NCBI GenBank assembly: GCA_048941015.1
Contig: JBHLNZ010000045.1
Coordinates: 1-25,981 of the forward strand
From: Promethearchaeota archaeon
GTDB taxonomy: Archaea > Asgardarchaeota > Lokiarchaeia > Sigyniarchaeales > SOKP01
Reading direction: 5' to 3'
Length of the DNA: 25,981 bases
Positions 1,136 through 19,559 of the stretch are shown here, in pieces (positions within the stretch are counted from its first letter, which is position 1; the number at the start of each line of letters is the position of its first letter). The translations under genes were made by a program, and so were the position numbers. The notes beneath the pieces are model-generated. The model searched no databases and was not told the DNA's origin. It worked only from the letters and a program-made list of their open reading frames with translations.

Positions 1136-3460
1136 ATGGTTAACTTTGAAGATTTTATAAACTATATTAAATCTCAAGAGTATTATAATGGTCAAATCGC
1201 TCATATCGAGCATATCCCAGAATTAAAAGCTAGATTTGATGAATTAGAAAAACCATTGAGAAAAAGATTACAACGTTGGCTCAACAATAGTAATATCAAG
1301 TTATGGAGACATCAAGCTGAAGCCATAAATCAAATTCGTAGGGGTAATAACACCGTAATCGTAACTTCTACAGCCTCAGGCAAATCTTTATGTTACAATT
1401 TATCTATTCTTGATGAAATTTTAAATAATGAAAAAACGACAGCTTTATACGTTTTTCCAACTAAAGCGTTAGCACGGGATCAATTTACAATACTATCCAA
1501 AATATTAGAAGAAACAAACATTAAGAGAGATAGAATAGGTGTGTATGATGGTGATGTTGATCCAAATGAAAAAAGAAAAATTCTATTCAATTCAAATGTA
1601 ATTATCACAAATCCTTATGGATTGCATTTTTATTTGCCATGGTTTAAACAAAAGTGGAGGAGAGTTTGTAGTAATTTAAAATACATCGTTCTAGATGAAA
1701 TTCATATTTATCGTGGAATTTTTGGTTCTAATTTTGCATTATTAATTAGGCGTTTAAAAAGAATTTTGAATTATTATGGTGTAAAACCAATATGGATTCT
1801 ATCGAGTGCTACGATTCGTAATCCAAAACAATTTTGTGAGAAATTGGTAGGTGAAGAATTCTATGTGGTTGATAGGGATGATTCTCCTTCTGGTACTAAA
1901 AAAGTTATTTTATGGGATTTACCATATGATGAAATTTCAAAAAAGTATCACTCAGCTCATCAGGAGACTAAAAATCTATTCATTAGCCATATCAAATATA
2001 AAGGTGGAATTCAAACATTAACTTTTACACTTTCAAGAAAAATGGCAGAATTGATAGCTATTTGGACAAGAAAGGAATTACCATCTATGAAAAATCAAAT
2101 TTTCAGTTATCGTGCGGGTATCAGCAAGAAGAAAAGGAGAGAAATAGAGCAAGGGTTTAAAAGCAGAAATATTCTTGGAATTAGTTCAACTAATGCGTTA
2201 GAACTAGGAATTGATATTGGCTCATTAGATGCAACAATATGTTCTGGCTTTCCTGGTACAATTTCAAGTTTTCGCCAACAAATTGGACGTTCTGGTAGAG
2301 GGAGTGACCTTTCTCTATCGACTTTTATCCCTATGCCTAACCCTTTAGATTTATTTTATATTCATAATCCGGATAAACTATTTGGACCTATCCAAGAAAA
2401 TATATTAATAACCCTGAATAATAAATATATCCTGAAAAATCACATATGTTGTGCAGCAAAAGAAATTCCCTTAATGACAGAAGATTACAAAAAGTTTGGG
2501 CTTCAAAATGTAAATTTATTTAAAGACTGTATTGAGGAGTTAATTTCAGAAGATTTGATAATGAAAAGAGGTAATAAGTTTTATTGGAGGGGAGAATATT
2601 ATCCTAATGAAAAGTATGGGTTGAATGATCTTTCATCAAGGAGTTATAAAGTATTATTAAAAACAGCAGGTACTGAGGAACTTTTAACTATTGAGGATGA
2701 AAGCTATGTTTTTAGAGATTTACATCCCGGAGCTGTATATCTTTATGAAGCCGAAACTTATATAGCTCAAGAACTTGATATTAAAGAAAGAATTGTATAT
2801 CTAACAAGAGCGGATGTTGAATTTTATACTCAATCACTGAAGCACACAGAAATCACTCCCTTAGAAACAATTTTTCAAAACGAAGTTAGGTTTAAGGATA
2901 CTAAGGAAGAGATAGAATACTATTTTGGTAATGTTAAAGTAGAACATGAATATTATGCTTATAAAGTAATTGATACTTTAACTCAAGAGACTCTTTCGCG
3001 TCATCCATTAGATGATATTCCAATAGTTGAATTTGAGACTCAGTCGGTTTGGTTTGAAATACCATTTGAGTATCAAAAAGATTTGGAACTAAAAGGTTAT
3101 AATCTTGGTGGAACAATACATGCAATAGAACATGGTATGATCGCCATGGCACCAATACTTGCCCAGATTTCTCGTTGGGATTTAGGAGGTGTATCTATAG
3201 ATTTTGATCCTATAAAGCAAAAACCAGTTATCTATATTTATGATGCTTATAAAGGTGGAGTTGGCATATCAGAGCTATTATTTAATAATTTATTAGAATT
3301 GATGAAACTTACTTATAATCTTATCAATTCTTGTAGTTGTAAAGCTGATGATGGTTGCCCTGCTTGTATTATGAGTCCTAAATGCGGAAACAATAATGAA
3401 CCGTTAGACAAAAATGGGGCGTTATTTTTACTATCCAGAATGCTAGCTTTAGAAGTTTAA
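1136..3460 (+). CDS. SF2 DEAH-box helicase with C-terminal DUF1998 Zn-binding domain (MrfA/YprA/SftH/Hrq1 family)
   Basis: Q motif LWRHQ, Walker A TASGKS, PTKALARDQ, DEIH, SAT, TNALELGIDIG, QQIGRSGR, HPGAVY, HAIEH, YDAYKGGVG and C-terminal CSC..GCPAC..PKC. Confidence 0.93.
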   Translation: MVNFEDFINYIKSQEYYNGQIAHIEHIPELKARFDELEKPLRKRLQRWLNNSNIKLWRHQAEAINQIRRGNNTVIVTSTASGKSLCYNLSILDEILNNEKTTALYVFPTKALARDQFTILSKILEETNIKRDRIGVYDGDVDPNEKRKILFNSNVIITNPYGLHFYLPWFKQKWRRVCSNLKYIVLDEIHIYRGIFGSNFALLIRRLKRILNYYGVKPIWILSSATIRNPKQFCEKLVGEEFYVVDRDDSPSGTKKVILWDLPYDEISKKYHSAHQETKNLFISHIKYKGGIQTLTFTLSRKMAELIAIWTRKELPSMKNQIFSYRAGISKKKRREIEQGFKSRNILGISSTNALELGIDIGSLDATICSGFPGTISSFRQQIGRSGRGSDLSLSTFIPMPNPLDLFYIHNPDKLFGPIQENILITLNNKYILKNHICCAAKEIPLMTEDYKKFGLQNVNLFKDCIEELISEDLIMKRGNKFYWRGEYYPNEKYGLNDLSSRSYKVLLKTAGTEELLTIEDESYVFRDLHPGAVYLYEAETYIAQELDIKERIVYLTRADVEFYTQSLKHTEITPLETIFQNEVRFKDTKEEIEYYFGNVKVEHEYYAYKVIDTLTQETLSRHPLDDIPIVEFETQSVWFEIPFEYQKDLELKGYNLGGTIHAIEHGMIAMAPILAQISRWDLGGVSIDFDPIKQKPVIYIYDAYKGGVGISELLFNNLLELMKLTYNLINSCSCKADDGCPACIMSPKCGNNNEPLDKNGALFLLSRMLALEV

Positions 3461-3511
3461 TTCTTTTCTGAAAGAATTTTCTTTTAATATAAAGAAATAT
3501 TAAAGGTGATT

Positions 3512-4642
3512 ATGACTAAGATTGATAATTATGAAATTGTGAGACAAAAATTAAGCCTTGGACCGTTATACGCACCTAAGCATAAAAAAATTTATGAACT
3601 CATGAAGATTTTATGGAATGAAGAAGAAATTGAGCTGCTTACGTATTTAGATGGTGCTGATAGATATAATACACTAGAACAATTAGAACAAAAATCAGGT
3701 ATTCCAAAATCAGAAATTGAAATTGTCTTGAACAGATTGAACGAAAGAGGTACGATAGCTAAAATTGAAACTGAAGAGGACACTTTATATAGTCTTGTTC
3801 CAATTGTTCCCGGTGTCTTTGAAAGATATTTTATCAGACAGAATGATTCTAAAGAAAATTTAAAGAAAGTAGCGGAGATCTATCATGATTTTATCTTTAA
3901 AGATTTTTTACCACCATTACTAACTGAAGCTAATTTAAAATTTTTTCGGCCAAGATTACCTGTTGATGCTAAAGAAAAATTAATTGAGATTGATGAGTCT
4001 ATAAATGCTGAATCTAAAATCCTTCCATATGAGTTAGTATCTCAATTAATTGAAAATTATGATATATTTACTGTTATTCCATGTCAATGTCGATTAATAG
4101 GTGAATATACAGGCGATCCATGTAAAATAGCTCCAGCAGAGATGGGTTGTTTTTTAGCTGGTGAAGGTGCTCTTTCATCTATTGAAAGGGGAGCTCCGAA
4201 AATGAATAAAAAAGAAGCAATAGATTATCTGAGAAAAACTGAGAAAGCTGGTTTGATTCATAGCTGTATCGCAGATGATAGCATTGAATCTACATTGTTT
4301 GTATGTAATTGCTGTAGTTGCCACTGTGGAGCATTAGCAGCAAAAGAAAGTAAATATATTGCCACTATGTCATCAAATTATATACCAAAAATAAATGATG
4401 AGCTCTGTACTAAATGTGAAACTTGCTTAAAGAAATGCCCCATGGAAGCAATTTACCATAAGTTTCCTAATAAGGCAGATAAATCTGATGAGAAAATGTT
4501 TATTAATGAAGAATATTGTATTGGCTGTGGAATTTGCGCAACTAACTGCCCTAATAATGCTATTAAACTGGTAAAGGTTAGAGATAACATTCCTTCGGAA
4601 AAATTCAAATTTGGAACCAAAACATTCTCAGAATTAGTTTAA
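3512..4642 (+). CDS. 4Fe-4S binding protein: N-terminal HTH-like region, Cys-rich middle domain, C-terminal 2x[4Fe-4S] ferredoxin
   Basis: CTKCETCLKKCP and CIGCGICATNCP ferredoxin motifs; additional CQCR..C..C and CNCCSCHC; HTH-like segment (LEQLEQKSGIPKSEIEIVLNRLNERGTI). ATG at 3512 follows an AGGTGA RBS; the track uses GTG at 3506. Confidence 0.85.
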   Translation: MTKIDNYEIVRQKLSLGPLYAPKHKKIYELMKILWNEEEIELLTYLDGADRYNTLEQLEQKSGIPKSEIEIVLNRLNERGTIAKIETEEDTLYSLVPIVPGVFERYFIRQNDSKENLKKVAEIYHDFIFKDFLPPLLTEANLKFFRPRLPVDAKEKLIEIDESINAESKILPYELVSQLIENYDIFTVIPCQCRLIGEYTGDPCKIAPAEMGCFLAGEGALSSIERGAPKMNKKEAIDYLRKTEKAGLIHSCIADDSIESTLFVCNCCSCHCGALAAKESKYIATMSSNYIPKINDELCTKCETCLKKCPMEAIYHKFPNKADKSDEKMFINEEYCIGCGICATNCPNNAIKLVKVRDNIPSEKFKFGTKTFSELV

Positions 4643-4879
4643 ATTAATACTAATAGCTTTTTTACTATTAATTTGCCTTTATTTCTTGGGAGTCGAGATT
4701 ATGTCACATTTCAAATCTAAATTAGCAAATATAAAAGAATATTTTTGAAAAATTATCTAAATCCACTAATTTGATCGCTTAAGAATAAATTCATAACTAA
4801 TTTTTAAAAATCAGTTAAGAAAAAAATAAGATATTAGCTTAAATGATCATTTTTTGACGACTAAATTTTTACTTGGTTA

Positions 4880-4945
4880 TACCCATTTCCTACCCATTTA
4901 TGAGAAAAAGTCATTTTTCTGTCAATAAAAGTCATTTTTCTGTCA
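4880..4945. repeat. Phased direct repeats: TACCCATTT x2 (4880-4888, 4891-4899) and AAAAGTCATTTTTCTGTCA x2 (4906-4924, 4927-4945)
   Basis: Exact repeats read from the sequence, with periods of 11 and 21 bp; GTCA recurs at 4910, 4921, 4931 and 4942. Confidence 0.85.
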
Positions 4946-5014
4946 TTATGCATCATGATTGTAAGTTTAATTATAATTTTTGGGAAAAAGTTCACTAAAA
5001 AATAATGTTTTCCG

Positions 5015-5075
5015 GATTCCGTCAAATTGAATACAAAAAGAGTCAGCTTTTCAAGATTTTAGCCGATTCCGCCAA
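5015..5075. repeat. Dispersed direct repeat GATTCCGYCAA x2 (5015-5025, 5065-5075)
   Basis: 10 of 11 bases identical, 50 bp apart, relatively GC-rich in an AT-rich spacer. Confidence 0.6.
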
Positions 5076-5172
5076 TTCAGAGAAGGAAATTATCCCAATA
5101 CATTTAAATACTAAATCATTCTTATTAAAATTAATAATAAAAATAAAAAGTAATAAAAAAAAGTGAAAAAAA

Positions 5173-5508
5173 ATGTCGATATTAGAACTTCAAGAGAAAG
5201 TAAAAATAATTTCTGATGAACAATTAAAAGAATTATATTCCTTAGCTAGTAAAGTAAGTTTAGACGCAATTGAAGAATTGTGCCCTGCTTTATTAAATAT
5301 TTGTTTAAATGCTGAGGGTGGAGTATTAAAAAATGAACTTGGAAGAGTTATATTCCATTTACAAAAATTAGAAAGATTAAATACAAGAATAGGATTAGAG
5401 AAGCTCTTACATGGTGCTTTAATGGTGAATGCAGAAGAAGTATTTAAACTTTTAGAAGAAGCAGAAGAAAAAGGATTAGCTGATAATATTAAAGAGCTTT
5501 TTCAATAA
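5173..5508 (+). CDS. Hypothetical all-alpha protein (111 aa)
   Basis: ATG start, codon usage like highly expressed neighbours, amphipathic helical Leu/Glu/Lys pattern, T8 tract just downstream; no motif recognised. Confidence 0.85.
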   Translation: MSILELQEKVKIISDEQLKELYSLASKVSLDAIEELCPALLNICLNAEGGVLKNELGRVIFHLQKLERLNTRIGLEKLLHGALMVNAEEVFKLLEEAEEKGLADNIKELFQ

Positions 5509-5515
5509 TTAAAGA

Positions 5516-5523
5516 TTTTTTTT
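5516..5523 (+). terminator. Putative archaeal oligo-T terminator
   Basis: T8 run beginning 7 nt after the stop of 5173..5508. Confidence 0.45.
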
Positions 5524-5613
5524 ACCTTTCTTATTTTAATTTAAAATTATTCTATAATTTAATAAAAAAAAGACTTAGAAATCTATATTTTTTATCATTC
5601 ATTTTATTTTATA

Positions 5614-5895
5614 ATGACAGAAGAAGAGAAAAGGGAAGACTCAGATTTAGACAAAGCTTGGGATTACTATGAAAAGATACATTCAGCACTAACAGGTCTG
5701 TATGATATTCTTAGTATGAGCATGGATAAAAACAATATTTTCTATCAATGTGCGATAGACAATCTGGAAAATTTAAAAGAGACTATTATCAACATGCTAA
5801 AGCATGATTATAATCCAGCTGAAATTAAACGTAAATTAAGAGATTTGGAATTTGACATGAAAAAGTCACTTTTTTTCGAGAAAGAAGGAGAATAG
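5614..5895 (+). CDS. Hypothetical acidic helical protein (93 aa)
   Basis: ATG start, plausible helical-bundle composition; no motif recognised. Confidence 0.8.
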   Translation: MTEEEKREDSDLDKAWDYYEKIHSALTGLYDILSMSMDKNNIFYQCAIDNLENLKETIINMLKHDYNPAEIKRKLRDLEFDMKKSLFFEKEGE

Positions 5896-5963
5896 TAGAC
5901 TTTTATACTTTAAAACTGTTCAGAATTATCAATTACTTATTATTAAACCAAAATTCAAGCTAA

Positions 5964-6599
5964 TTATAGATCCTTTATTCTTATCATTGACCAACTAACA
6001 ATAGATGTGTCTGGTATAATTATTTCTTCAAGAATTCTAAAACCGAAGTGATCATAAATAGCAATATTTCTCTCTATATTAGTTTCCAAATAGATAGGTA
6101 AGTTTTCATTGTCTATACGGTTTAACATTGGTTTTATAAGCTTGGATGCAAATCCTTGTCCTTGATATTCGGGATCGATACCAATAGGCCCAAAATACCA
6201 ATAGGGAACCTTCATATAGATATTACGTATAGAATCATTAACTGCTTGAATAAATGAAATTCTTTTAGTTGATTTTACTCCAAATTTTATAGGAAGCTTT
6301 ATTCCTCCATTTTTAACATATTTCCAATAAGAAATGTTAACATATTTAGGAGAACGCCACATAGCAATCCCCTCTAAATTTTCTGAAGTAGCATATACTT
6401 CACCATATTTTATACCTATTCTTAGGCTTATTTGCCATAAATAGTGAAGCTTTTTAGCTCTGGTATTAAAATCAGGAATCTGCCAGCGGATTACAGGATC
6501 GTTTAAAAATGCTCTGGATAATACTAAACTTGCAGCTTTAATATCTTTTTTTGAAAGACGTAGTAGGTTAGTTAACTCTAGCATTTTTTTTGAACTCAA
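5964..6599 (-). CDS. GNAT family N-acetyltransferase (puromycin N-acetyltransferase-like)
   Basis: AFLNDP, acetyl-CoA motif A IGIDPEYQGQGFAS, YLET..RNIAIYDHFGF. Start is TTG at 6599 or ATG at 6584. Confidence 0.9.
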   Translation of the reverse strand: MSSKKMLELTNLLRLSKKDIKAASLVLSRAFLNDPVIRWQIPDFNTRAKKLHYLWQISLRIGIKYGEVYATSENLEGIAMWRSPKYVNISYWKYVKNGGIKLPIKFGVKSTKRISFIQAVNDSIRNIYMKVPYWYFGPIGIDPEYQGQGFASKLIKPMLNRIDNENLPIYLETNIERNIAIYDHFGFRILEEIIIPDTSIVSWSMIRIKDL

Positions 6600-8481: not shown

Positions 8482-8949
8482 TTAAAATGATACTTTACGC
8501 TCTTGAGATATGGTTTTAATTGGTTTTAATACGACGCATACTCTTTCTACACTTTTAACATCGCTTCGACCGCGGAAATTCTCAACCAAAGCATCTAACT
8601 CAGTAATCTCGGGAACGTTTACTTTAACAAGAACTCCACATTGTCCAGCCAAAAAATATACCTCTTCACATTGGGGTAAAATCTGGGTCTCTCGAAGTAG
8701 TTCTTTCATTTCAGATTCATTCTTGGGAATAAGCGTTATAAAAGCATATATACATCTTTCCTCTTCACGACACACTTTTATAGTAAATTTTTCAATTACT
8801 CCCTCTTCTTGTAATTTTAAAACACGTTTTCTAACTGTTGATTCAGATAAACTTACTTCTGGATCTTCTGCAATATCTTTATAAGCTCTCCGTGAATCTT
8901 CAATTAACATTTCTAATATTCTTTTGTCTTTATCATCTAAATTTTTCAT
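8482..8949 (-). CDS. Lrp/AsnC family transcriptional regulator
   Basis: LDDKDKRILEML..DSRRAYKDIA..LSESTVRKRVLKLQEEGVI HTH plus C-terminal RAM-like domain. ATG at 8949 has a GAAAGGAA upstream; the track uses TTG at 8970. Confidence 0.92.
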   Translation of the reverse strand: MKNLDDKDKRILEMLIEDSRRAYKDIAEDPEVSLSESTVRKRVLKLQEEGVIEKFTIKVCREEERCIYAFITLIPKNESEMKELLRETQILPQCEEVYFLAGQCGVLVKVNVPEITELDALVENFRGRSDVKSVERVCVVLKPIKTISQERKVSF

Positions 8950-8985
8950 AGTCAATTTCTTTCCTTTCAATCTAGGTTTTGTATT

Positions 8986-9048: not shown

Positions 9049-10002
9049 TTACATGACATATTTGGGATAATCCTTTAATAGTGGATCAAAGAGTCTTTCA
9101 TATTCTACCGCCATACAATGAATACCAGCTGCTTTCGTAGTTTTCTTAATTTCTTTGATAAATGGTTCGAAGAATTCAATATTTATTTTATCTAGAGCGG
9201 CATATTTTGCCTGTTTATTTCCTTTGTTATCTTTTTCTGCTTTCTTTAATGATTTTAACAAATCTTTAGGCACTGAAACTCCAGGAATGTACGCATCGAA
9301 ATACCATGCGATTCCATAAGATTTCAGCGGAAATACTCCAAGTAAGACAGGTACATTAAATTGTTCTAACTCCTTAAGAAATTCTTTTGCTTGATCAATA
9401 TCAAAAGCAGTTTGAGTCTGTATAAAATCTACTCCTCTTTCTACTTTACGGCCGACCTTGAGAATTTCAGGTTCTCTTGGATTACTATTTGGATTAGCAA
9501 CACATCCAAAATTCATTTCTATTTTTCCACCTTCAAGTTCATTTCCTTCATAATCAGTTCCCTCATCAATCATAATTGAGAGCATTTCACAGAATTGTGT
9601 ACTATCAATATCATATACCGGTCGCCCTTTTTTGTGATCACCTAAAGCTGTGTGATCTCCTGTGAGTGTTAAGATATTCTTTAATCCCAGTACCGCACCA
9701 GCCACTACGTCTCCAAATAATGCCACCCGATTACGATCTCTAACTGTCACTTGCCAAACAGCTTCTATACCAACTTTTTCTTGAATAAGATAGCTTGGTA
9801 CCAGTGAAGACATATAAGCATCTCCCTGAGGTCCATCTGTTACATTTGCTGCAACAATTTTTCCTGTTTTTTTCATCTCTTCAGCAGAATGAAAGATTTC
9901 ACTGAGATCAAGAATCTTTTTAGGTTCAAGTTCACCAGTAAATACAAAATGACCCTCTTCAATTGCTTCACATAATTTACTATATGCAGGTCTTTTCGCC
10001 AT
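9049..10002 (-). CDS. metF: 5,10-methylenetetrahydrofolate reductase, acetogen-type MetF
   Basis: FTGELEP (catalytic Glu), NVTDGP, RDRNRVAL, LTGDH (catalytic Asp), FIQTQ, PGVSVP, GIHCMA. ATG at 10002 lies 1 nt after the metV stop and follows GGAGG (10015-10019); the track start 10029 overlaps metV. Confidence 0.93.
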   Translation of the reverse strand: MAKRPAYSKLCEAIEEGHFVFTGELEPKKILDLSEIFHSAEEMKKTGKIVAANVTDGPQGDAYMSSLVPSYLIQEKVGIEAVWQVTVRDRNRVALFGDVVAGAVLGLKNILTLTGDHTALGDHKKGRPVYDIDSTQFCEMLSIMIDEGTDYEGNELEGGKIEMNFGCVANPNSNPREPEILKVGRKVERGVDFIQTQTAFDIDQAKEFLKELEQFNVPVLLGVFPLKSYGIAWYFDAYIPGVSVPKDLLKSLKKAEKDNKGNKQAKYAALDKINIEFFEPFIKEIKKTTKAAGIHCMAVEYERLFDPLLKDYPKYVM

Positions 10003-10003
10003 C

Positions 10004-10702
10004 TTATTGTTTCGCCTCCACTTTTTCATCTTCTTCGTTAGTATATTCTTTATATATTGTTATATAGCTTGGACTTGTCGAAGTGCGATAATCTCGGGGT
10101 CCTCGATATTTTTTAAACAAATCGAGTCGGTTAAATTCTTTTAAGCGTTGCCACATCCGTACCCATGCACAAGGAATAGTATATCCACCAACCTCACACA
10201 TACCATCCACCATACCTCCACATGGGCCATTACTCAAATGCTTAGCGCACCCAGCACGCGGACAGACGCCACCAGTTTCTCCAATTATACAATCACCACA
10301 TTCTTCACAATATTCTATAAAGCTATTCTCTCCATTGTTTTGAGCACCACCAAAATGACTATTTTGCGCAGGAAATGTAAGTATATTAGGTAATACTTTA
10401 TTTAACATAACTACGCCGAGACCACAAGCTAATGAAACAATAGCATCAAAATTCTCTATATGAGGTCCTACGGTGGTTGCTGCTATTCTATCATCACATT
10501 GTCTGAGAACTGTTATTGCTTTCCATTTTAATTCTTTTCCTTCAGTTCTAGCTTTTAACTCTAGAAGTTGTCCAAGTACTTTTGCTTCGTTTAATGAGCG
10601 AGGTGGTTGACAGCAACCATCACAACCAGCGATCAAGATTTTATTATAATCTTTAACCATGTCGTAAATTTCGTTTATATCTTTTAGTTGTGTAATTATC
10701 AT
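10004..10702 (-). CDS. metV: Methylenetetrahydrofolate reductase small Zn/Fe-S subunit MetV (MTHFR_C domain)
   Basis: GCDGC, RQCD, LACGLG, CEECGDC..GGVCP..CAKHLSNGPCGG..GMCEV..CAW; lies directly upstream of metF; AAGGAG RBS. Confidence 0.92.
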   Translation of the reverse strand: MIITQLKDINEIYDMVKDYNKILIAGCDGCCQPPRSLNEAKVLGQLLELKARTEGKELKWKAITVLRQCDDRIAATTVGPHIENFDAIVSLACGLGVVMLNKVLPNILTFPAQNSHFGGAQNNGENSFIEYCEECGDCIIGETGGVCPRAGCAKHLSNGPCGGMVDGMCEVGGYTIPCAWVRMWQRLKEFNRLDLFKKYRGPRDYRTSTSPSYITIYKEYTNEEDEKVEAKQ

Positions 10703-10793
10703 ATTACATAACTCCTTTCTTTCAAACTTTTTTGGTTTTTTATTTTAAATTTTTAATTATATCTTATATTGTGTTTAAATAAAATTACACTAA

Positions 10794-11675
10794 TTAGGTT
10801 GTTAATTTCTCAATTAACTTATTTGGTTTAATACTTCTATTAGTTAAACTAAGTTCTTCTAGTTCCACTCCCAAACCTATAGCCATCATCTCAGCTAAAT
10901 AAAGAACCGGAATATCTAATTCTTTACCTGTTCTCCGTGCGATGATTCTTTCTTTCCTATCATACTGAGTAGTACACGCGGGACAGACGGCTATTAAAGC
11001 ATCAACTTCTTCTTCAAGCTCACATAGCTCAGTCATTTTATCTTCTACTAGTTTTTCTCCAATCTCTTCCTGCAGTCTCGCACAGTATCCACAACATTCC
11101 AACTTATTAGCAAAATCTATTGTTTTAGCACCAAGAGCTTGAAGAATTATATCTATTTTCTCTGGTTTTTCTGGGTGATCAAATTGCATTATTTTACTTG
11201 GCCTTACTAAATGACAGCCATAGTGGACTGCGAGATTTAAATTATCTAATGGTTTTATTAATAGGTTTTTGATTTTCTCTAACCATTCTGGTTGACTAAA
11301 TAATTCAACAAAGTGATATACTTTCGTCTTACCAGTGTATTTATAGTTAATTTTTGCTAATATTCCATTGATTTTCTTAAGATATTCCTTGTCTTCTTCT
11401 AATAATACACTTACTGTCTTTAAAGTTTCATAACATCCAGAACAAATGGTTAAAATGTTTAATCCCATTTTTTCAGCAATAGCTAGATTTCTTGCACCTA
11501 ATGCAACCCAAGTATCAATATTTAATGATTGCATTGATACAGGTTCAGGACAGCAACTAACGCCTTCCATTTCTTTCAATTTAACATCTAAAATTTTGGC
11601 AACATCCCTAAAAGCTTTCTCTAAATGAGGTAATTTAAGGGGTATTGTACATCCTAAGAATAGAGCGTATTCCAT
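10794..11675 (-). CDS. hdrB: Heterodisulfide reductase subunit B
   Basis: Two complete CCG domains: FLGC...SCCP...CSGC and HYGCH...ECCG...CPAC. TAATG overlap with the hdrC stop. Confidence 0.95.
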   Translation of the reverse strand: MEYALFLGCTIPLKLPHLEKAFRDVAKILDVKLKEMEGVSCCPEPVSMQSLNIDTWVALGARNLAIAEKMGLNILTICSGCYETLKTVSVLLEEDKEYLKKINGILAKINYKYTGKTKVYHFVELFSQPEWLEKIKNLLIKPLDNLNLAVHYGCHLVRPSKIMQFDHPEKPEKIDIILQALGAKTIDFANKLECCGYCARLQEEIGEKLVEDKMTELCELEEEVDALIAVCPACTTQYDRKERIIARRTGKELDIPVLYLAEMMAIGLGVELEELSLTNRSIKPNKLIEKLTT

Positions 11676-12208
11676 TATTTATCTTCCACCTCTTCTTTTG
11701 CGAGACTACCAAGTCCCGTTTCTTCTATTATAAATCTAATTTCTTCTAAATTTGGTGGAATCAACTCTGGCAATCCCATCCTATTTCTACGTCTATCAAC
11801 ATTATCTTTAAGACCGCCTGTATATGGTACAACATATCCATTATTATAAATTGTTACCACTGTGCTTGAATATTCTTTAGGTATCTTTCCTTCTTTAACT
11901 GCCATGTTTCTTAACAGCGCTAAGATAAATGAGTAATCAACATTCTTAGGGCAGCGTTCAGTACATCTATGACATAATGAACAAGTCCAGATAGCGTTAC
12001 TGGAAAGTACTTCTTCTTTTAAGCCCAAAAGGCAAGCAGCAACAACTCGATGAGGTTGTAAATCTACATATTCAGTAACAGTACAGCCGCTACTACATAC
12101 ACCACATTGAATACATTTAAGAAGGGACTTAGCTCCAACTTTTTCACTAATTTCATATCTAAATGAGTGATCTAATTGTTTAGCATCTTTTTTTAACATT
12201 TCGGTCAT
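11675..12208 (-). CDS. hdrC: Heterodisulfide reductase subunit C
   Basis: CIQCGVCSSGC and IWTCSLCHRCTERCP, C-terminal RRNRMGLP; located between hdrA and hdrB; GGAGG RBS. Confidence 0.95.
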   Translation of the reverse strand: MTEMLKKDAKQLDHSFRYEISEKVGAKSLLKCIQCGVCSSGCTVTEYVDLQPHRVVAACLLGLKEEVLSSNAIWTCSLCHRCTERCPKNVDYSFILALLRNMAVKEGKIPKEYSSTVVTIYNNGYVVPYTGGLKDNVDRRRNRMGLPELIPPNLEEIRFIIEETGLGSLAKEEVEDK

Positions 12209-12211
12209 TTT

Positions 12212-15200
12212 TTATACTGCCTCCTTGACTTTTTCTTTCTTTTGTTTAATTTTATCTCCCGTTTTGGATAAAGGTCCAAGTTCTTTTATTTTATTTACAA
12301 AATCGGTTACAACTTGAGAGAAACGCTTACCTTCACTCGCGGAAACCCATTCGAGTCTATAGCGATCTGGGTTGATACCAACTTTTTCAAGAATTTCATG
12401 AAGCGCATTATACCGTCTTAACATGTCATAATTTCCTTCTAAATAATGACAATCTCCAATATGACAGCCTCCAACCAAAACCCCATCAGCTCCTTCTAAA
12501 AAAGCTTGTAGTATGAAGCGTTTTGGAATTCTACCCGTACACATCACTCTTATAGGCCTAATATTGGTAGGATATTGAAATCTGCTAACACCACATGTAT
12601 CTGCACCAGCATAACTGCACCAATTACACAAGAAAGCTACAATACGAGGTCTTTCATCTATAAATTCTCCTCTGACAGCTTCTTGAATCATAGGATTAAT
12701 TTGCTCATCTGCAAAATGACTCATCGTTATGGCTCCTGCCGGGCATGCTGCAGCACAATCACCACATCCTTTACAAAGTAGCGGATTTGATTCGGAAACT
12801 AATATTTCATTATCAAAATTCACTCCAATAGCTCCAAAATTGCAAACTTCTTCACATTTTTGACATGCAATACATAATGCTGGATTTACAACTGAAACTA
12901 AAGGTTCATTTTCTACTTCTCCAGAAATTAGTGGTATTAATGCATGAGCAGCGGCACCTCTTCCTTGAGAGATTGAATCCGCAATACCTTTAGGTCCATG
13001 ACATGTCCCTGCTAAATAAATTCCATCGGTTGCAAAATCAACTGGTCTTAATTTTACATGTGCTTCTAAAAAGAAACCACTTTGATCTCTTGCACATTTT
13101 ATCTGTTCACCTAGTTTTTGAGTATCGTGAGGAACTAAAGGTGTGGAAAGTACAACCTTATCAGCTTCAATATCTAAATCTGTTTGAGTCAAAATATCTT
13201 TAACATTTACCTTCAATTTACCATTAATAATATCAACAGTAGGATAATCATTAAATCTAATATAATTGATATTCTCCCGAGCTTTCCAATAGTAAGGTTC
13301 TTCATCAGTTCCTACTCGTATGTCTCTGTAAAGTACATAGATATTAGATTTTGGATAATTTTCTTTAACATACAGAGCATGTCTGATAGATTCCGAACAA
13401 CAAATAAGTGAACAATAAGTAAATCCATTGCCGCCTTCTGGTTGCCTTGAACCAACACAATGAATAAAGACAAGAGTTTCTCCATCAGCTAATTCCTTAT
13501 TTCTTAATTTTTCTGACAATTCAAGCTGAGTTATAACATTTTCATTTTCACCATAATGGTACCACCCTTTAGGTTTGTATTCATAAGCTCCTGTGGCTGT
13601 AATAATTACACCAACATTTAACTCAAGTTCTTTCCCGTCAACATTGTTTTTTACCTTAACTTTAAAATTTCCAATAGACCCTTTTACATCAGCTACTATA
13701 GAATTCAAATAAGTTGAAATATTCTTTTGAGAGTTAAAATTCTTTAACTTTTCATTAAGAAATTCTTCCGAATCAATCCTATCAAAATTTATTTTATAAA
13801 TTTGATTTAATTGACCTCCTAATTTGTCTTCTTTTTCTACAAGATGGACTTTAAAGCCTTTATTCGCAATTTCCATTGCTGCACTTAATCCTGAGATTCC
13901 ACCGCCAACAATCAGTGCTTCTGGAACCACATTCCCTTTGATTTTGAATTCTGATTTCTGAGCTCTTACACGAGCTACGCCCATTCTGATTAAATCTTTT
14001 GCTTTATCAGTAGCTTTAGGATTATCGTTCATGTGTACCCAAGAGTCTAATTCTCGAATACTAACGAAATTAAAAAGATATTCATTTAGTCCTGCTTCTC
14101 TGATTGTTTTTTGAAACAATGGTTCATGAGTTCTTGGTGTACAGGCAGCTACAACTACTCTATTCAGATCTAATTCTTCAATTTTCTCTTTAATTATATC
14201 TTGGGTCAGTTGTGAGCAACTATATTTATTTTCCATAGCATAAACAACGTTGGGAAGCGTTTTTGCATATTCTACTAAATTAGGAACATCCATATATCCT
14301 GCGATGTTAATACCACAACGGCAAACAAATACACCTATTCTGGGTTCATCACTGACTTTAACCTCTTTTAAAGGTGGAAGCTCAACTTTTTGTTCCTCTT
14401 CACTTAATGGGATTGCATAACTCGCAGCAAGTGCGGCTGCACCACCCGCTTTTGCAACAGAATTGGCTATGTCATCTGGCGATTGGCAGGAACCAGTCAC
14501 AAATATTCCAGGTTTAGTAGATTTTAAATCCTCAGTTGAATTTGCTGTTTTAAAAAATCCAAATTCATTTTGTTCAATCCCCAATATTTTTGCCAGTTCA
14601 TTCGCATCTTTTCTTGGGGTTACTGCATTTGCAAGTACTACTAGATCATATTCATCTACATCTACTTCTCCTGTATCCAAATTAGCTGATTTAACGATTA
14701 AGTTATGATTATCGGGATGTTCTCTAACATCTCCTGGAATTCCATGATGATATTTTAACTTATATTCGTTCTTTGCTCGAACAGTAAATTCATCTTGATT
14801 CTTACCTATAACTCTTAAATCGTTGAAATAGATTGTCACATTTGTATCAGGAGCATGTTCTCGGGTTACAACTGCTTCTTTGGTTTGATACATACAGCAA
14901 AATTTAGAACAATAAGAACAAAGATCCTCATTTCTAGACCCAACACAACTAACAAATGCAATATTATGCGCATGTACTTTGTCTGAGGGGCGTTGTATTT
15001 CCCCTCCTGTAGGTCCAGAAGCACTTAGTAATCTTTCATACTGCATTGCTGTAATTACATTTGGATATTCGCCGTAATGATATCGATCCAAAACAGAAGG
15101 ATCAAGTTGATCATATCCAGTTGCTACAATAATAGAAGCTACATTGTATTCTACTATTTCATCTTTATCTTCCCAATTTATTGCTCCAGCTTCACATTCT

Positions 15201-15709
15201 TTTTCGCAAAGTTGGCATGCACCTTTCGTTAAATAAAGACATTTGTCTGGATCAATAACAGCTTTCCTAGGAACTGCCTGTGGAAATGGGATATAAATCG
15301 CAGTTCTGTTTCCCATTGCTTCTTCAAATTCCGATGGTATTTTTTTCATAGGACACTTTTCACTACAAGCACCACACCCAGTACACGCATCCCAATTTAC
15401 ATATTTTGCCTTCTTTTTCACTTTCACTTTAAAATCTCCAGCTTTACCAGTTACATTCTGAACTTCGGAATAAGCTAAAAGATCAATGTTAGGATGTCTG
15501 CTAGATTCAACCATTTTAGGGGCAAGAATGCATATACTACAATCTAATGTAGGGAATGTTTTATCTAACTGCGCCATTCGACCTCCTACTGAGGAAGTTT
15601 TTTCTACAAGAATTACTCTGTATCCTTGCTCTGCTAAGGTCAAAGAGGCTTCTATCCCCGAAATTCCGCCACCAATTACCATTATATTACTATTTGCCAT
15701 TTTTGCCAT
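12212..15709 (-). CDS. hdrA: Tandem heterodisulfide reductase subunit A (two FAD modules) fused to a C-terminal MvhD [2Fe-2S] domain
   Basis: Two GGGISG FAD motifs; KTFPTLDCSIC; inserted ferredoxin CTGCGACSEKCP / CQLCEKEC; two CVGSR..CSxxCC cluster motifs; internal HdrA N-terminal domain GVFVCRCG..AACTPRTHE; C-terminal ferredoxin; MvhD motifs FLCNWCSY, MCTGR, GCHIGDCHY, WVSASEG. Confidence 0.95.
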   Translation of the reverse strand: MAKMANSNIMVIGGGISGIEASLTLAEQGYRVILVEKTSSVGGRMAQLDKTFPTLDCSICILAPKMVESSRHPNIDLLAYSEVQNVTGKAGDFKVKVKKKAKYVNWDACTGCGACSEKCPMKKIPSEFEEAMGNRTAIYIPFPQAVPRKAVIDPDKCLYLTKGACQLCEKECEAGAINWEDKDEIVEYNVASIIVATGYDQLDPSVLDRYHYGEYPNVITAMQYERLLSASGPTGGEIQRPSDKVHAHNIAFVSCVGSRNEDLCSYCSKFCCMYQTKEAVVTREHAPDTNVTIYFNDLRVIGKNQDEFTVRAKNEYKLKYHHGIPGDVREHPDNHNLIVKSANLDTGEVDVDEYDLVVLANAVTPRKDANELAKILGIEQNEFGFFKTANSTEDLKSTKPGIFVTGSCQSPDDIANSVAKAGGAAALAASYAIPLSEEEQKVELPPLKEVKVSDEPRIGVFVCRCGINIAGYMDVPNLVEYAKTLPNVVYAMENKYSCSQLTQDIIKEKIEELDLNRVVVAACTPRTHEPLFQKTIREAGLNEYLFNFVSIRELDSWVHMNDNPKATDKAKDLIRMGVARVRAQKSEFKIKGNVVPEALIVGGGISGLSAAMEIANKGFKVHLVEKEDKLGGQLNQIYKINFDRIDSEEFLNEKLKNFNSQKNISTYLNSIVADVKGSIGNFKVKVKNNVDGKELELNVGVIITATGAYEYKPKGWYHYGENENVITQLELSEKLRNKELADGETLVFIHCVGSRQPEGGNGFTYCSLICCSESIRHALYVKENYPKSNIYVLYRDIRVGTDEEPYYWKARENINYIRFNDYPTVDIINGKLKVNVKDILTQTDLDIEADKVVLSTPLVPHDTQKLGEQIKCARDQSGFFLEAHVKLRPVDFATDGIYLAGTCHGPKGIADSISQGRGAAAHALIPLISGEVENEPLVSVVNPALCIACQKCEEVCNFGAIGVNFDNEILVSESNPLLCKGCGDCAAACPAGAITMSHFADEQINPMIQEAVRGEFIDERPRIVAFLCNWCSYAGADTCGVSRFQYPTNIRPIRVMCTGRIPKRFILQAFLEGADGVLVGGCHIGDCHYLEGNYDMLRRYNALHEILEKVGINPDRYRLEWVSASEGKRFSQVVTDFVNKIKELGPLSKTGDKIKQKKEKVKEAV

Positions 15710-16201: not shown

Positions 16202-16882
16202 ATGAAAATTGTAGTTAGTGGTCCGTTGCAGTGTGGAAAGTCAAGTTTTATCCGCAAGCTAGATGAGAATGCGCTAAATGTTGAAGCAAAAGCTCGTGAC
16301 AATAAATACTATACTGTCGGAATGGATCTAGGGTGCGTGAAACTCAATGGATTTGACGTCTTTTTATTTGGTACTCCTGGCTTACTAAGATTCAACGTTA
16401 TGAGAGATGTTGTAATTAGAGGTACAGACGGATTAATTTTTATTTTTGATGCGGCTCATCCAGAAAAAGACGAGGATGCTATCGTAATTTTGAACTCAAT
16501 AAGAAAATTGATTGATCCTGACGCACCAATAGTATATTTGGCTAATAAACAAGATATTGCTGGAGCGCGTCATCCCGAGGTGGTTAAAACTCAAAATTAT
16601 TTACCCCAGGAAGCTATTATCTTTGGTACAAGTACTAAAACTGGAGAAAATCTTGAAGAAGCATTGAAGAATCTTGTCAACCAAATCTATGAAAACTATT
16701 CATCTCTTATTAAAATTCTGAAGACATATGAAGAAGATATCCCTGGTTTAGCGGAAAAGTTAGAAAAAGGCCCGAAAGAAATGAGAGATTTTCTGAATAA
16801 TCTTGAGATTAAAAGATTTATTGAAATTGATCGTCAGAAAAAAACTTTTAAAGTAAAACACGGTTTAAAACTTTTAATTTAA
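16202..16882 (+). CDS. Small GTPase (MglA/conservon/Arf-like) with a C-terminal winged-helix-like extension
   Basis: G1 GPLQCGKSS, G2 TVGMD, G3 GTPGL, G4 NKQD, G5 STK; about 60 extra C-terminal residues in a helix-helix-beta hairpin pattern. Confidence 0.9.
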   Translation: MKIVVSGPLQCGKSSFIRKLDENALNVEAKARDNKYYTVGMDLGCVKLNGFDVFLFGTPGLLRFNVMRDVVIRGTDGLIFIFDAAHPEKDEDAIVILNSIRKLIDPDAPIVYLANKQDIAGARHPEVVKTQNYLPQEAIIFGTSTKTGENLEEALKNLVNQIYENYSSLIKILKTYEEDIPGLAEKLEKGPKEMRDFLNNLEIKRFIEIDRQKKTFKVKHGLKLLI

Positions 16883-17595: not shown

Positions 17596-19509
17596 TTATA
17601 ATTCTGAAGGTAAAATTAAATCTTTATTGTATTGATTCCTTACTTTCTTTAGTTCATCTCTTTGCCTATAAAGAGTTTCCCAGAAAAATTGAGGGATATT
17701 TTTCTCCTTTTTGTAAATCTTTTCAATTCTATCTAATTTTTCAAGTAATTGCGATACTCTTATGGAGAATTGTTCTTCAAAATCTTTTTCAGAATATATT
17801 TTATTAAGATAAGTATTAAAAAGTTGTTTAAGATCGTGATATTTTGGTATATATCCAATAGGGGTCTTTATTACGTCAAATTCATTATTACATCGCCCAT
17901 TTGCCCATAAAACCCAAACCAATTTGTCTAACATCCCATTCAAATACTTTCCCTCTTCATTTTTTAAGAAATAGTTTGTAGCAAAGATTTTAGGTGGATA
18001 TTTCAAACGAGCACCAAATTTCTGATGATTTTTTAAATATTTTCCTATAGGAACCACTATAAAGTCGAGATTTGCCATTGGCTGCCAAGATCTCACACCT
18101 TCAGCACCAAGAGTGGCAGATGTTGTTTCAGATTCAATAGAAGCACCTAAAAAGACTCCATTTTCCCAATCTATGCTTTCAAGTACTGGAGGCATTGTAT
18201 CGCTATCTCTACCTCCATAAAAAATACCATGAATGGGTACTCCATCAGGATTATGAAGATTAGGATCAGTATTGCTAAGTTCTTCAAGACGTATTGTATA
18301 ACGAGCATTTGGATGAGCTAGTGGAATTTCTTTACCATTTTTATCTTTCTTACCTTTATACCAGTTTCCCGAAAAATTAAATCCTTTATCTGGAATTTCT
18401 CTCCCATCTCCAATCCAATAGGGAGTTTCAGTTTCAGTTTCAATAAGCACATTAGAAAAAATAGTCTCTCGAGGTGAAGTTAACGCTTTAAAAATAAGGG
18501 GGTCATCTTTTGCATTCACATCCTTTATAATTCCAAAAATTCCTCTTTCAATGTTTACTGCATGAGCATAACCATCATCCCAAACTCGAAGATATGCTAT
18601 ATCATCTCCGACTATTTGTTGTCCAGGGAGCATTGCAGTGCTTGTTTTTCCACAAGCAGAAGGATATGCTCCACAAAAGTATGTTATTCTGTTTTTGTTA
18701 TCAGGAAGTGCTCCCATAATAAAGTAGTGCTCCGTAAGCCAATCCTCGTTATTTGCTTTATAAATTCCTAATCTTAGAGCAAGTTTTTTCAGTCCTATTG
18801 AATTTCCGGCATATTGATTATTTACTGAGAGGACACGACTTTCTTTCAAATCTATATAAATTCTACGGTTTTCAAGATTTTTCGTAACAGGGGGGTCTCC
18901 AATCAAATCTCCTGAAGAGTGAATAAAGTAAAAAAATTCATCAGAACCTTTTAGTCGTTTAAACTCCTCATAACCAGATCGGTATAGGAGATCTTCAGAA
19001 TGAGCAACATAAAAGGAATCAGTTAATTGCAGAGCAAGAATTGAAAACTTAGAGTTTACAGGACCCAAACAGAAAAACCTTACAAGACATTCATGCCCTT
19101 TCATACAACCATCCATTATTTCCAAGATTTCACTTAATCCTTCGTTTCTATCCATAGTATTTATCCAAGGATATACATTGTCGTCTTCTTTAGGTATCAA
19201 GACTTGTGTATGCTCCTTATCTCGAGCTTGATCATGATTTGCCATAGTTATAAAGCCATCAAAATGAACTGTATTCCCTTCCAATTTTAACTTTTGCTCT
19301 TCTCCGATTTGAATCGTTTTGTGTCTTACGTAATCGATATCTTGTTTAGAATCTGAAATTACTGAGATCTTACTTGGTTTGCATAGATCGGTAAATTGAG
19401 TTATAATACGTAAAACGTGATTATTTTTTAGAGCAAGTAATTTCTCGAAATCTTTTTGTGATAAAAGATCCTTCTTAACGTAATCATTAATTGTATCTAA
19501 AGAATCCAT
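17596..19509 (-). CDS. pckG: Phosphoenolpyruvate carboxykinase (GTP)
   Basis: DQARD, YAGNSIGLKKLALR, WLTEH, YPSACGKTS, VGDDIAY, AHPNARYT, FYGGRD. ATG at 19509 preferred over the track's TTG at 19527. Confidence 0.95.
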   Translation of the reverse strand: MDSLDTINDYVKKDLLSQKDFEKLLALKNNHVLRIITQFTDLCKPSKISVISDSKQDIDYVRHKTIQIGEEQKLKLEGNTVHFDGFITMANHDQARDKEHTQVLIPKEDDNVYPWINTMDRNEGLSEILEIMDGCMKGHECLVRFFCLGPVNSKFSILALQLTDSFYVAHSEDLLYRSGYEEFKRLKGSDEFFYFIHSSGDLIGDPPVTKNLENRRIYIDLKESRVLSVNNQYAGNSIGLKKLALRLGIYKANNEDWLTEHYFIMGALPDNKNRITYFCGAYPSACGKTSTAMLPGQQIVGDDIAYLRVWDDGYAHAVNIERGIFGIIKDVNAKDDPLIFKALTSPRETIFSNVLIETETETPYWIGDGREIPDKGFNFSGNWYKGKKDKNGKEIPLAHPNARYTIRLEELSNTDPNLHNPDGVPIHGIFYGGRDSDTMPPVLESIDWENGVFLGASIESETTSATLGAEGVRSWQPMANLDFIVVPIGKYLKNHQKFGARLKYPPKIFATNYFLKNEEGKYLNGMLDKLVWVLWANGRCNNEFDVIKTPIGYIPKYHDLKQLFNTYLNKIYSEKDFEEQFSIRVSQLLEKLDRIEKIYKKEKNIPQFFWETLYRQRDELKKVRNQYNKDLILPSEL

Positions 19510-19559
19510 TTTTTCTCGATAAATCAATCTATACTTTCAAAAGTGAAAATATCGTTAAA

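Follow-up and report, generated by a model that had tools for sequence, protein, structure and literature searches.

The type IV (Hdr-type) methylenetetrahydrofolate reductase (MTHFR) of Moorella thermoacetica and Sporomusa ovata was reportedly described by Mock et al. in 2014 as a MetFV-HdrCBA-MvhD enzyme. Accounts of the two bacterial systems are available (PMC8760232, PMC9430772), and other close relatives include the MetFV, HdrA, and MvhD gene clusters of Ca. Syntrophoarchaeum, with an ANME-1-type archaeal MetF (Chadwick et al. 2022, PMC9012536), the methanogen HdrABC-MvhAGD complex (PDB 5ODC), and the type II MetVF of Clostridium ljungdahlii and Thermoanaerobacter kivui, which stands alone and uses reduced ferredoxin (PMC8515935, PMC8760232). 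Here we describe a cluster of five genes, encoding an HdrA-HdrA'-MvhD fusion, HdrC, HdrB, MetV, and MetF, in a Promethearchaeota (Lokiarchaeia) metagenome-assembled genome (MAG; 3.59 Mb, 95% complete). The window, i.e., the whole stretch of DNA analyzed, is complete contig C110 of this MAG and spans 25,981 nucleotides. We consider it reasonably probable that the cluster encodes an archaeal, Hdr-coupled (type IV) methylene-tetrahydropterin reductase, for which tetrahydromethanopterin (H4MPT) would be the most likely one-carbon (C1) carrier. This enzyme type is already known from bacteria and the idea is in print for other archaea; the cluster does not represent a new kind of machine.

The genes, identified from the open reading frame (ORF) list and Pfam, are co-directional, arranged head to tail, and all encoded by the minus strand, as follows.

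12212..15709, minus strand: HdrA-HdrA'-MvhD fusion, 1165 aa (Pfam, 5ODC alignment, NCBIfam HdrA2)
11675..12208, minus strand: HdrC-like subunit, 177 aa, two CxxCxxCxxxC motifs (Pfam Fer4_8)
10794..11675, minus strand: HdrB-like subunit, 293 aa, two complete CCG (CXnCCXnCXXC) motifs (two Pfam CCG matches)
10703..10793, minus strand: hdrB-metV spacer, 91 bp, candidate terminator and internal promoter (spacer comparison)
10004..10702, minus strand: MetV, 232 aa, 12 invariant cysteines (Pfam DUF5981, orthologue alignment)
9049..10002, minus strand: MetF, 317 aa, catalytic flavoprotein of the paralog A clade (Pfam MTHFR, tree)

Going downstream from the gene of the HdrA fusion, successive genes are separated by 3 bp, overlap by 1 bp, and are then separated by 91 bp and by 1 bp; a GGAGG-like motif is present ahead of each of hdrC, hdrB, metV, and metF. 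Gene content, gaps, and ribosome-binding site (RBS)-like motifs at four of the five genes are all as the preliminary description of this DNA had given them. The metF start is the ATG at 10002, 1 bp past the metV stop and with GGAGG in front; the start at 10029 in the ORF list is an upstream in-frame ATG and was rejected.

The cluster has the same set of components as the bacterial type IV enzymes, namely MetF, MetV, a two-flavin HdrA, an HdrB with two CCG motifs, HdrC, and MvhD, likewise encoded by clustered genes. As previously claimed, its gene order, A(D)-C-B-V-F, differs from the bacterial hdrCBA-mvhD-metVF (C-B-A-D-V-F; PMC9430772). This and the following comparisons with Moorella and Sporomusa were made through published descriptions rather than by direct sequence or tree comparison.

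The 1165-aa protein displayed two FAD Rossmann halves (approximately residues 8–60 and 598–640), Fer4 domains, and an FlpD/MvhD domain (residues 1023–1145, 177 bits) in Pfam, i.e., the [2Fe-2S] subunit is fused to HdrA. In an alignment to the HdrA chain of 5ODC, the solved Mvh-Hdr complex, residues 8–386 matched HdrA 145–518, the FAD domain with its inserted two-cluster ferredoxin domain, with Cys60 as the equivalent of Cys197; residues 454–620 matched HdrA 2–168 (N-terminal domain), residues 876–1009 matched HdrA 514–647 (C-terminal ferredoxin domain), and residues 1020–1148 matched MvhD (chain 5odc_D). The second FAD domain is ~90 residues shorter and therefore has no inserted ferredoxin domain. 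In half 1, the TrxR/FAD domain carries a 2x[4Fe-4S] ferredoxin insert, and the N-terminal domain is lacking. Half 2 begins with an N-terminal cluster domain, continues with a TrxR/FAD domain that has no insert, and ends in a C-terminal ferredoxin domain, after which comes the MvhD [2Fe-2S] domain. Judged from these alignments, the protein is a single-chain HdrA pseudo-dimer with complementary domain losses, standing in for the HdrA homodimer of the methanogen complex, and such a complementary two-HdrA fusion is also how Chadwick et al. describe the Moorella protein (PMC9012536). Both flavin sites and the inserted ferredoxin domain are strictly conserved. The protein passed the NCBIfam HdrA2 model (1175 bits, cut-off 1100) only as the summed score of three stretches; Methanosarcina HdrA2, itself an HdrA::MvhD fusion, is a precedent for the fusion.

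An HdrA architecture unlike the bacterial one, as first proposed, was thus borne out in part. The tandem two-flavin arrangement is common to Sporomusa and Moorella (PMC9430772, PMC9012536), the S. ovata HdrA having two flavin sites (PMC9430772). The Asgard protein differs in that MvhD is fused to it and in that half 1 retains an inserted ferredoxin domain, which S. ovata HdrA does not have. It also differs from the Moorella HdrA, a 1487-aa protein with a GltD/NAD(P)H module (PMC9430772): Pfam and NCBIfam revealed no GltD-type NAD(P)H insertion in the 1165-aa protein, and NAD(P)-binding models matched only the two short FAD Rossmann motifs (66 bits, cut-off 516). Since this module is absent, NADH is not a likely donor in the Asgard enzyme.

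Cofactor motifs of the other two Hdr subunits are fully conserved, with all 8 cysteines of the two HdrC CxxCxxCxxxC motifs invariant across 63 orthologues, and HdrB cysteines 9, 41, 42, 78, and 81 and 154, 194, 195, 231, and 234 invariant across 80. Both proteins scored under the cut-offs of the coenzyme B–coenzyme M (CoB-CoM) equivalog models (HdrC, 102 bits against 160 for TIGR03290; HdrB, 268 bits against 345 for TIGR03288), which is compatible with a thiol substrate other than CoB-CoM.

MetF matched Pfam PF02219 (MTHFR) with 91 bits (cut-off 24) over 277 of 287 positions and MetV matched PF12225 (DUF5981) with 95.6 bits. The window MetF fell under the cut-off of every NCBIfam MetF equivalog, including TIGR00676 for the canonical NAD(P)H-dependent enzyme (44 bits, cut-off 293.7). 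The same genome encodes a second MetV-MetF pair, paralog B, on contig C91 (G000:C91:20295-21539; locus L039 9278-10894). Its MetF is 47% identical to that of the window (paralog A), the pair has no Hdr neighbors, and it is the C91 pair, not the window pair, that fits the description of the stand-alone type II MetVF, with which both share the MetV-MetF core and adjacent genes. In the MTHFR scheme of PMC8760232, gene content places a type II-like (paralog B) and a type IV-like (window) enzyme in one genome. The second, stand-alone MetVF also sets the Asgard genome apart from Ca. Syntrophoarchaeum. In many relatives, both pairs lie 8–19 kb apart on a single contig. After the paralog B pair, a 513-aa pyridine-nucleotide-disulfide oxidoreductase with a dimerization domain, Lpd-like, is encoded at L039 7582-9123; as a candidate conserved neighbor it was rejected, as it was not found beside paralog B in Loki_b31.

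To place both paralogs, a MetF tree of 113 rows was built (LG+G4, quick search), with cluster representatives on the bacterial side, including one Clostridioides, and without Moorella or Sporomusa sequences. Paralogs A and B fell in one archaeal clade together with a Bathyarchaeota sequence (97 SH-aLRT), and each was monophyletic (99 for A, 100 for B). On this tree, the Hdr-linked MetF is therefore not a recent import from acetogens, and a separate archaeal MetF clade is a further difference from the bacterial type IV enzymes, as is the probable H4MPT carrier.

We next evaluated whether the Hdr-metVF linkage holds among relatives. In 400 sampled Asgard genomes, paralog A, defined as MetF at least 60% identical to that of the window, was found in nearly all genera of the window's family and in single genomes of four other families. 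A species-level genome scan with a narrow MetF alignment then provided the best 80 paralog-A loci, all from Promethearchaeota-type MAGs, of which 10 were cut by contig ends. Hdr genes lay directly upstream of metVF in every one of the 70 informative loci, and HdrC and HdrB were part of the cluster in 67, an addition to the MetFV, HdrA, and MvhD described for Ca. Syntrophoarchaeum. The window's order, HdrA2D-HdrC-HdrB-MetV-MetF, was displayed by 55/70 loci and HdrC-HdrB-split HdrA-MvhD-HdrA2D-MetV-MetF by 12/70, while 3/70 had HdrA genes only upstream of metVF. A loss of HdrCB in the g22 subclade was considered and rejected for 12 of its 15 variant loci, where hdrC-hdrB are found farther upstream, before the split HdrA and separate MvhD. 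The absence of any conserved linkage, which would have spoken against the original proposal, was thus not what the relatives displayed.

Hdr-MetVF linkage with other gene orders was also detected in other Asgard families (G169, G037, G168, G397, and the P0121 contig), including MetV-MetF-HdrA2D-HdrC-HdrB in G397 and on the P0121 contig and HdrA2D-MetV-MetF in G168; in the MetF tree, the Hdr-linked MetFs of G168 and P0121 fall outside clade A. Separately, a bacterial-type Wood-Ljungdahl cluster (L064 8001-11117) encodes a 1038-aa protein in which MetF is joined to a CdhD/AcsD-like domain; the genes ahead of it encode HdrA, three MvhD proteins, and MetV. This cluster shows how far the Hdr-MetV-MetF theme extends. 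In-frame stops in some orthologues were considered as selenocysteine codons and rejected, as true gene ends had been overrun by ORF extension.

The hdrB-metV spacer bears on whether the cluster is a single operon. In the window it holds the T-rich tract TTTTATTT 10 nt past the hdrB stop and a TATA-like, A-rich TTTAAAATA ~38 nt before the metV ATG, followed by GGAG. The preliminary description had taken the absence of T-runs longer than 4 as a sign of one operon; this absence is true of the window, but the argument fails in relatives, as a T5–T11 run starts 0–18 nt after the hdrB stop in 63/67 distinct orthologous spacers (shuffled mean, 3.2/67). Oligo-T tracts are the usual termination signal in archaea, so that partial termination after hdrB, with a separate promoter for metVF, appears likely. 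A single operon at the window locus is accordingly doubtful on this comparison, and the functional linkage is not.

These spacers would also fit an arrangement in which the Hdr genes and metVF are conserved but uncoupled neighbors, and MetVF-A is a stand-alone type II enzyme transcribed from the TATA-like box before metV. The many Hdr/MvhD sets of Lokiarchaeia, including 13 MvhD/FlpD matches in the window's genome, would make such an adjacency easier to accept. We nonetheless regard it as highly improbable, because the linkage persists in all informative loci through three gene orders and extends to several Asgard families, because hdrA2D and metV are only 17–40 nt apart in the variant subclade, with an RBS and no T-tract, and because paralog B is never Hdr-linked within family f1. 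Features of MetV itself, described below, argue in the same direction.

The N-terminal domain of MetV carries a CxxC-CQPPRS loop (CCQPPRS) in 85/85 Hdr-linked (A-type) MetV and in 1/23 stand-alone (B-type) MetV. When HdrA residues 870–1165 (C-terminal ferredoxin domain and MvhD) were folded with MetV using self-made alignments, the pair scored 0.66 (runs 0.66, 0.71, and 0.65) against 0.10 for the best control. The score mark that this model passed was reached by 58/80 solved complexes and 2/110 mismatched pairs, which, given the self-made alignments, are rough counts only. Contacts agreed by at least 92% between runs, and the partner predicted local distance difference test (pLDDT) was at least 87. 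On MetV, the predicted interface covers residues 8–66, including the CxxC at 27/30 and loop 28–39, so that the loop specific to Hdr-linked MetV is part of it; on the HdrA fusion, it covers the ferredoxin cluster motif (947–951, 989–992) and MvhD residues 1062–1071, 1106–1112, and 1149–1151. A structure search found no solved homologue of MetV, and a similarity of MetV to HdrA or MvhD was rejected, as profile comparison found none; a pass through memory of a similar solved complex is therefore unlikely. Overall, the model supports binding of MetV, through its N-domain, at the end of HdrA that holds the C-terminal ferredoxin domain and MvhD, and the paralog-specific loop together with the passing model argues against mere neighborhood. 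In S. ovata, pull-downs showed MetV-HdrA and MetF-HdrA/B/MvhD contacts (PMC9430772); for the Asgard proteins, a physical Hdr-MetVF complex is predicted from the model.

For the C1 carrier, the genome encodes Ftr, Mtd, and Mch, all on contig C94, as well as an archaeal CdhC, while no Mer above cut-off and no formyl-tetrahydrofolate synthetase (FTHFS) was found in it. This set of presences and absences makes H4MPT a likelier carrier than folate, and indeed the most likely one from gene content; the folate-type C1 branch assumed in the preliminary description does not agree with it. Across the window's order, Mer was absent from all 153 sampled genomes, and it is present in many other Asgard families; Mch was detected in 130/135 genomes of the window's family. 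The likeliest function of MetF, by analogy, would be to act on H4MPT-bound C1 in place of Mer, as proposed for ANME-1, Syntrophoarchaeum, and Bathyarchaeia (PMC9012536). Ca. Syntrophoarchaeum resembles the Asgard case in having an archaeal-clade MetVF clustered with HdrA and MvhD, no Mer, and a MetF proposed to work on H4MPT (PMC9012536).

Alternatively, the substrate of the Hdr-MetVF complex could be C1 carried by tetrahydrofolate (H4F), for instance methylene-H4F released when serine, glycine, or histidine is degraded, a route that has been put forward for cultured Lokiarchaeia. All characterized members of the MetF family are specific for folate, one FolD is encoded in the genome (on C46), and a partial H4F branch is reportedly in use in cultured Loki strains (PMC12222021). 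This has to be set against the missing FTHFS, an H4MPT branch with archaeal CdhC in which only Mer is lacking, the proposal that the archaeal MetF clade, including Asgard MetFs, switched to H4MPT (PMC9012536), and the Mer genes that adjoin the cluster in G397 and G168. On balance we consider the folate alternative quite unlikely and retain H4MPT, to which the enzyme would then be specific, as the probable carrier.

The distribution of Mer and of the two MetVF paralogs suggests that the Hdr-linked enzyme does more than replace Mer. Genera g16 and g18 carry Mch, lack Mer, and have paralog B as their sole MetVF, with Hdr genes absent from the surrounding 7–10 kb, which indicates that paralog B alone can cover the step. 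Conversely, G168, G169, and G397 encode Mer and Hdr-MetVF together. In G397 (L152, G397:C12, 7441-16838), the cluster is ordered MetV-MetF-HdrA2D-HdrC-HdrB, and 0.66 kb beyond hdrB come two Mer genes in tandem, each scoring above the equivalog cut-off. In G168 (L151, G168:C3, minus strand), one gene (4619-6259) encodes a Mer that scores above the NCBIfam cut-off and carries a fused N-terminal extension of 218 residues with no family assigned, and directly downstream lies a 1008-aa double HdrA without MvhD (1342-4368); the two are 3.3 kb from the HdrA2D-MetV-MetF cluster, and this Mer could be Hdr-linked. Since g16 and g18 use paralog B alone and G168, G169, and G397 keep Mer, the Hdr-linked MetVF appears to be an energy-coupled alternative for this step rather than a simple or sole Mer substitute, and paralog B would be its uncoupled, type II-like counterpart.

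In the mechanism that we propose, the MetF flavin would interconvert the methylene and methyl forms of the C1 carrier, and the Fe-S protein MetV would wire MetF to the pseudo-dimeric HdrA-HdrA'-MvhD flavoprotein. The cluster has no hydrogenase partner, unlike the methanogen complex, with which HdrA domains, the Cys197 equivalent, the C-terminal ferredoxin domain, and MvhD are alignable; the MetV N-domain is predicted at the C-terminal ferredoxin/MvhD end of HdrA, the place of the hydrogenase in methanogen Mvh-Hdr. Two branches would start at the HdrA flavin: one would reach ferredoxin via the ferredoxin domain inserted in half 1, and the other would run through HdrC and the pair of noncubane clusters in HdrB to a candidate thiol/disulfide couple. 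The potential of the methylene/methyl-H4MPT couple (about -320 mV) is midway between those of ferredoxin and of a CoM-S-S-CoB-like disulfide, which would make either oxidative bifurcation or reductive confurcation thermodynamically sensible. It is conceivable, albeit doubtful, that methylene/methyl-H4MPT serves as the mid-potential partner of flavin-based bifurcation or confurcation, in whichever direction, with ferredoxin and a thiol/disulfide, and that MetVF replaces the Mvh hydrogenase on the Hdr core.

A simpler possibility is that the Hdr module is a plain electron wire, passing electrons from reduced ferredoxin or a dithiol through HdrA, MvhD, and MetV to MetF with no bifurcation. The S. 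ovata enzyme gave no co-reduction of ferredoxin or NAD(P)+ (PMC9430772), and type II MetVF works in vitro with reduced ferredoxin (PMC8760232), both as a wire would predict. Two conserved flavin sites, a full HdrBC with noncubane-cluster motifs, and an inserted ferredoxin domain exceed the needs of a wire, however, and a simpler MetVF paralog is already available in the same genome, so that we rate this possibility as rather unlikely.

Besides the FolD gene and the folate use of all characterized MetF enzymes, several points weigh against an Hdr-coupled, H4MPT-dependent reductase. The contact model is limited to a fragment of HdrA, and the tract after hdrB points to separate or attenuated transcription of metVF. 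The stand-alone MetVF of g16 and g18 indicates that an Hdr link is not required for the C1 step itself, and Mer replacement cannot be the whole story where Mer and Hdr-MetVF co-occur. Moreover, the bacterial prototypes were never shown to bifurcate (PMC9430772, PMC8760232), and the S. ovata complex is loose (PMC9430772).

Beyond the cluster, the window encodes the following neighbors.

8482..8970, minus strand: Lrp/AsnC-family regulator, co-directional, 78 bp downstream of metF
16202-16882, plus strand: Ras/Arf-like small GTPase, cluster flank, syntenic in Loki_b31
17596-19527, minus strand: phosphoenolpyruvate carboxykinase (PEPCK), GTP-type, cluster flank, syntenic in Loki_b31
22610-24196, minus strand: thermosome, cluster flank, syntenic in Loki_b31

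These flanking genes (Ras/Arf-like GTPase, thermosome, PEPCK), along with 88–97% identity of the window MetF to proteins of Promethearchaeota MAGs such as Loki_b31, place the organism in Lokiarchaeia, consistent with the Asgard host first suggested. The Lrp/AsnC neighbor of metF also occurs in Loki_b31 and at variant locus L130, and may regulate the Hdr-MetVF cluster. Elsewhere in the window (3506-4642, plus strand), a 378-aa protein joins a TrmB-like winged-helix N-terminus to a 2x[4Fe-4S] ferredoxin domain at its C-terminus and may act as a redox-sensing regulator.

Other Hdr and MvhD genes were noted in the same genome (G000). Four or five of its MvhD/FlpD matches contain one or two in-frame TGA codons (C131:13482-13847, C5:3529-3897, C44:40719-41087, and C137:2211-2576), and their proteins may contain selenocysteine. 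A single [NiFe]-hydrogenase large subunit was found in the genome (G000:C53:6241-8670); it adjoins another HdrA::MvhD fusion (850-aa frame), in what looks like a separate Mvh-Hdr-type unit. On the Asgard-like contig carrying P0121 (L062 1-2662), the ribonucleotide reductase large subunit is split by two intein/LAGLIDADG insertions.

Hdr-MetVF linkage in archaea, on whose novelty in Asgard archaea the preliminary description had remained undecided, is already in print for Ca. Syntrophoarchaeum (PMC9012536); our literature search found no description of an Asgard cluster, subscription papers, in which an earlier one may exist, lying outside that search. Added here are the conserved terminator-like tract after hdrB, the paralog split with stand-alone-only genera, the cluster variants, the adjacency of Mer to the cluster in further Asgard families, and, for MetV, an interface loop specific to its paralog along with a contact model that passed.

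Lokiarchaeia encode many Hdr/MvhD sets without a known heterodisulfide, and if the cluster encodes a working complex, it ties these sets and the missing Mer step to one enzyme. It would then add an energy-coupling site, new for the archaeal Wood-Ljungdahl pathway, and provide a function for the puzzling Hdr sets of non-methanogenic Asgard archaea; with the second MetVF as an uncoupled isoenzyme, the cell could opt for either a coupled or an uncoupled route. The single-chain HdrA would also offer a simpler system for settling whether Hdr-type MTHFRs, including the bacterial enzymes for which this is proposed, bifurcate at all. If true, this reading would help explain ferredoxin balance and energy conservation in relatives of the eukaryotic ancestor.

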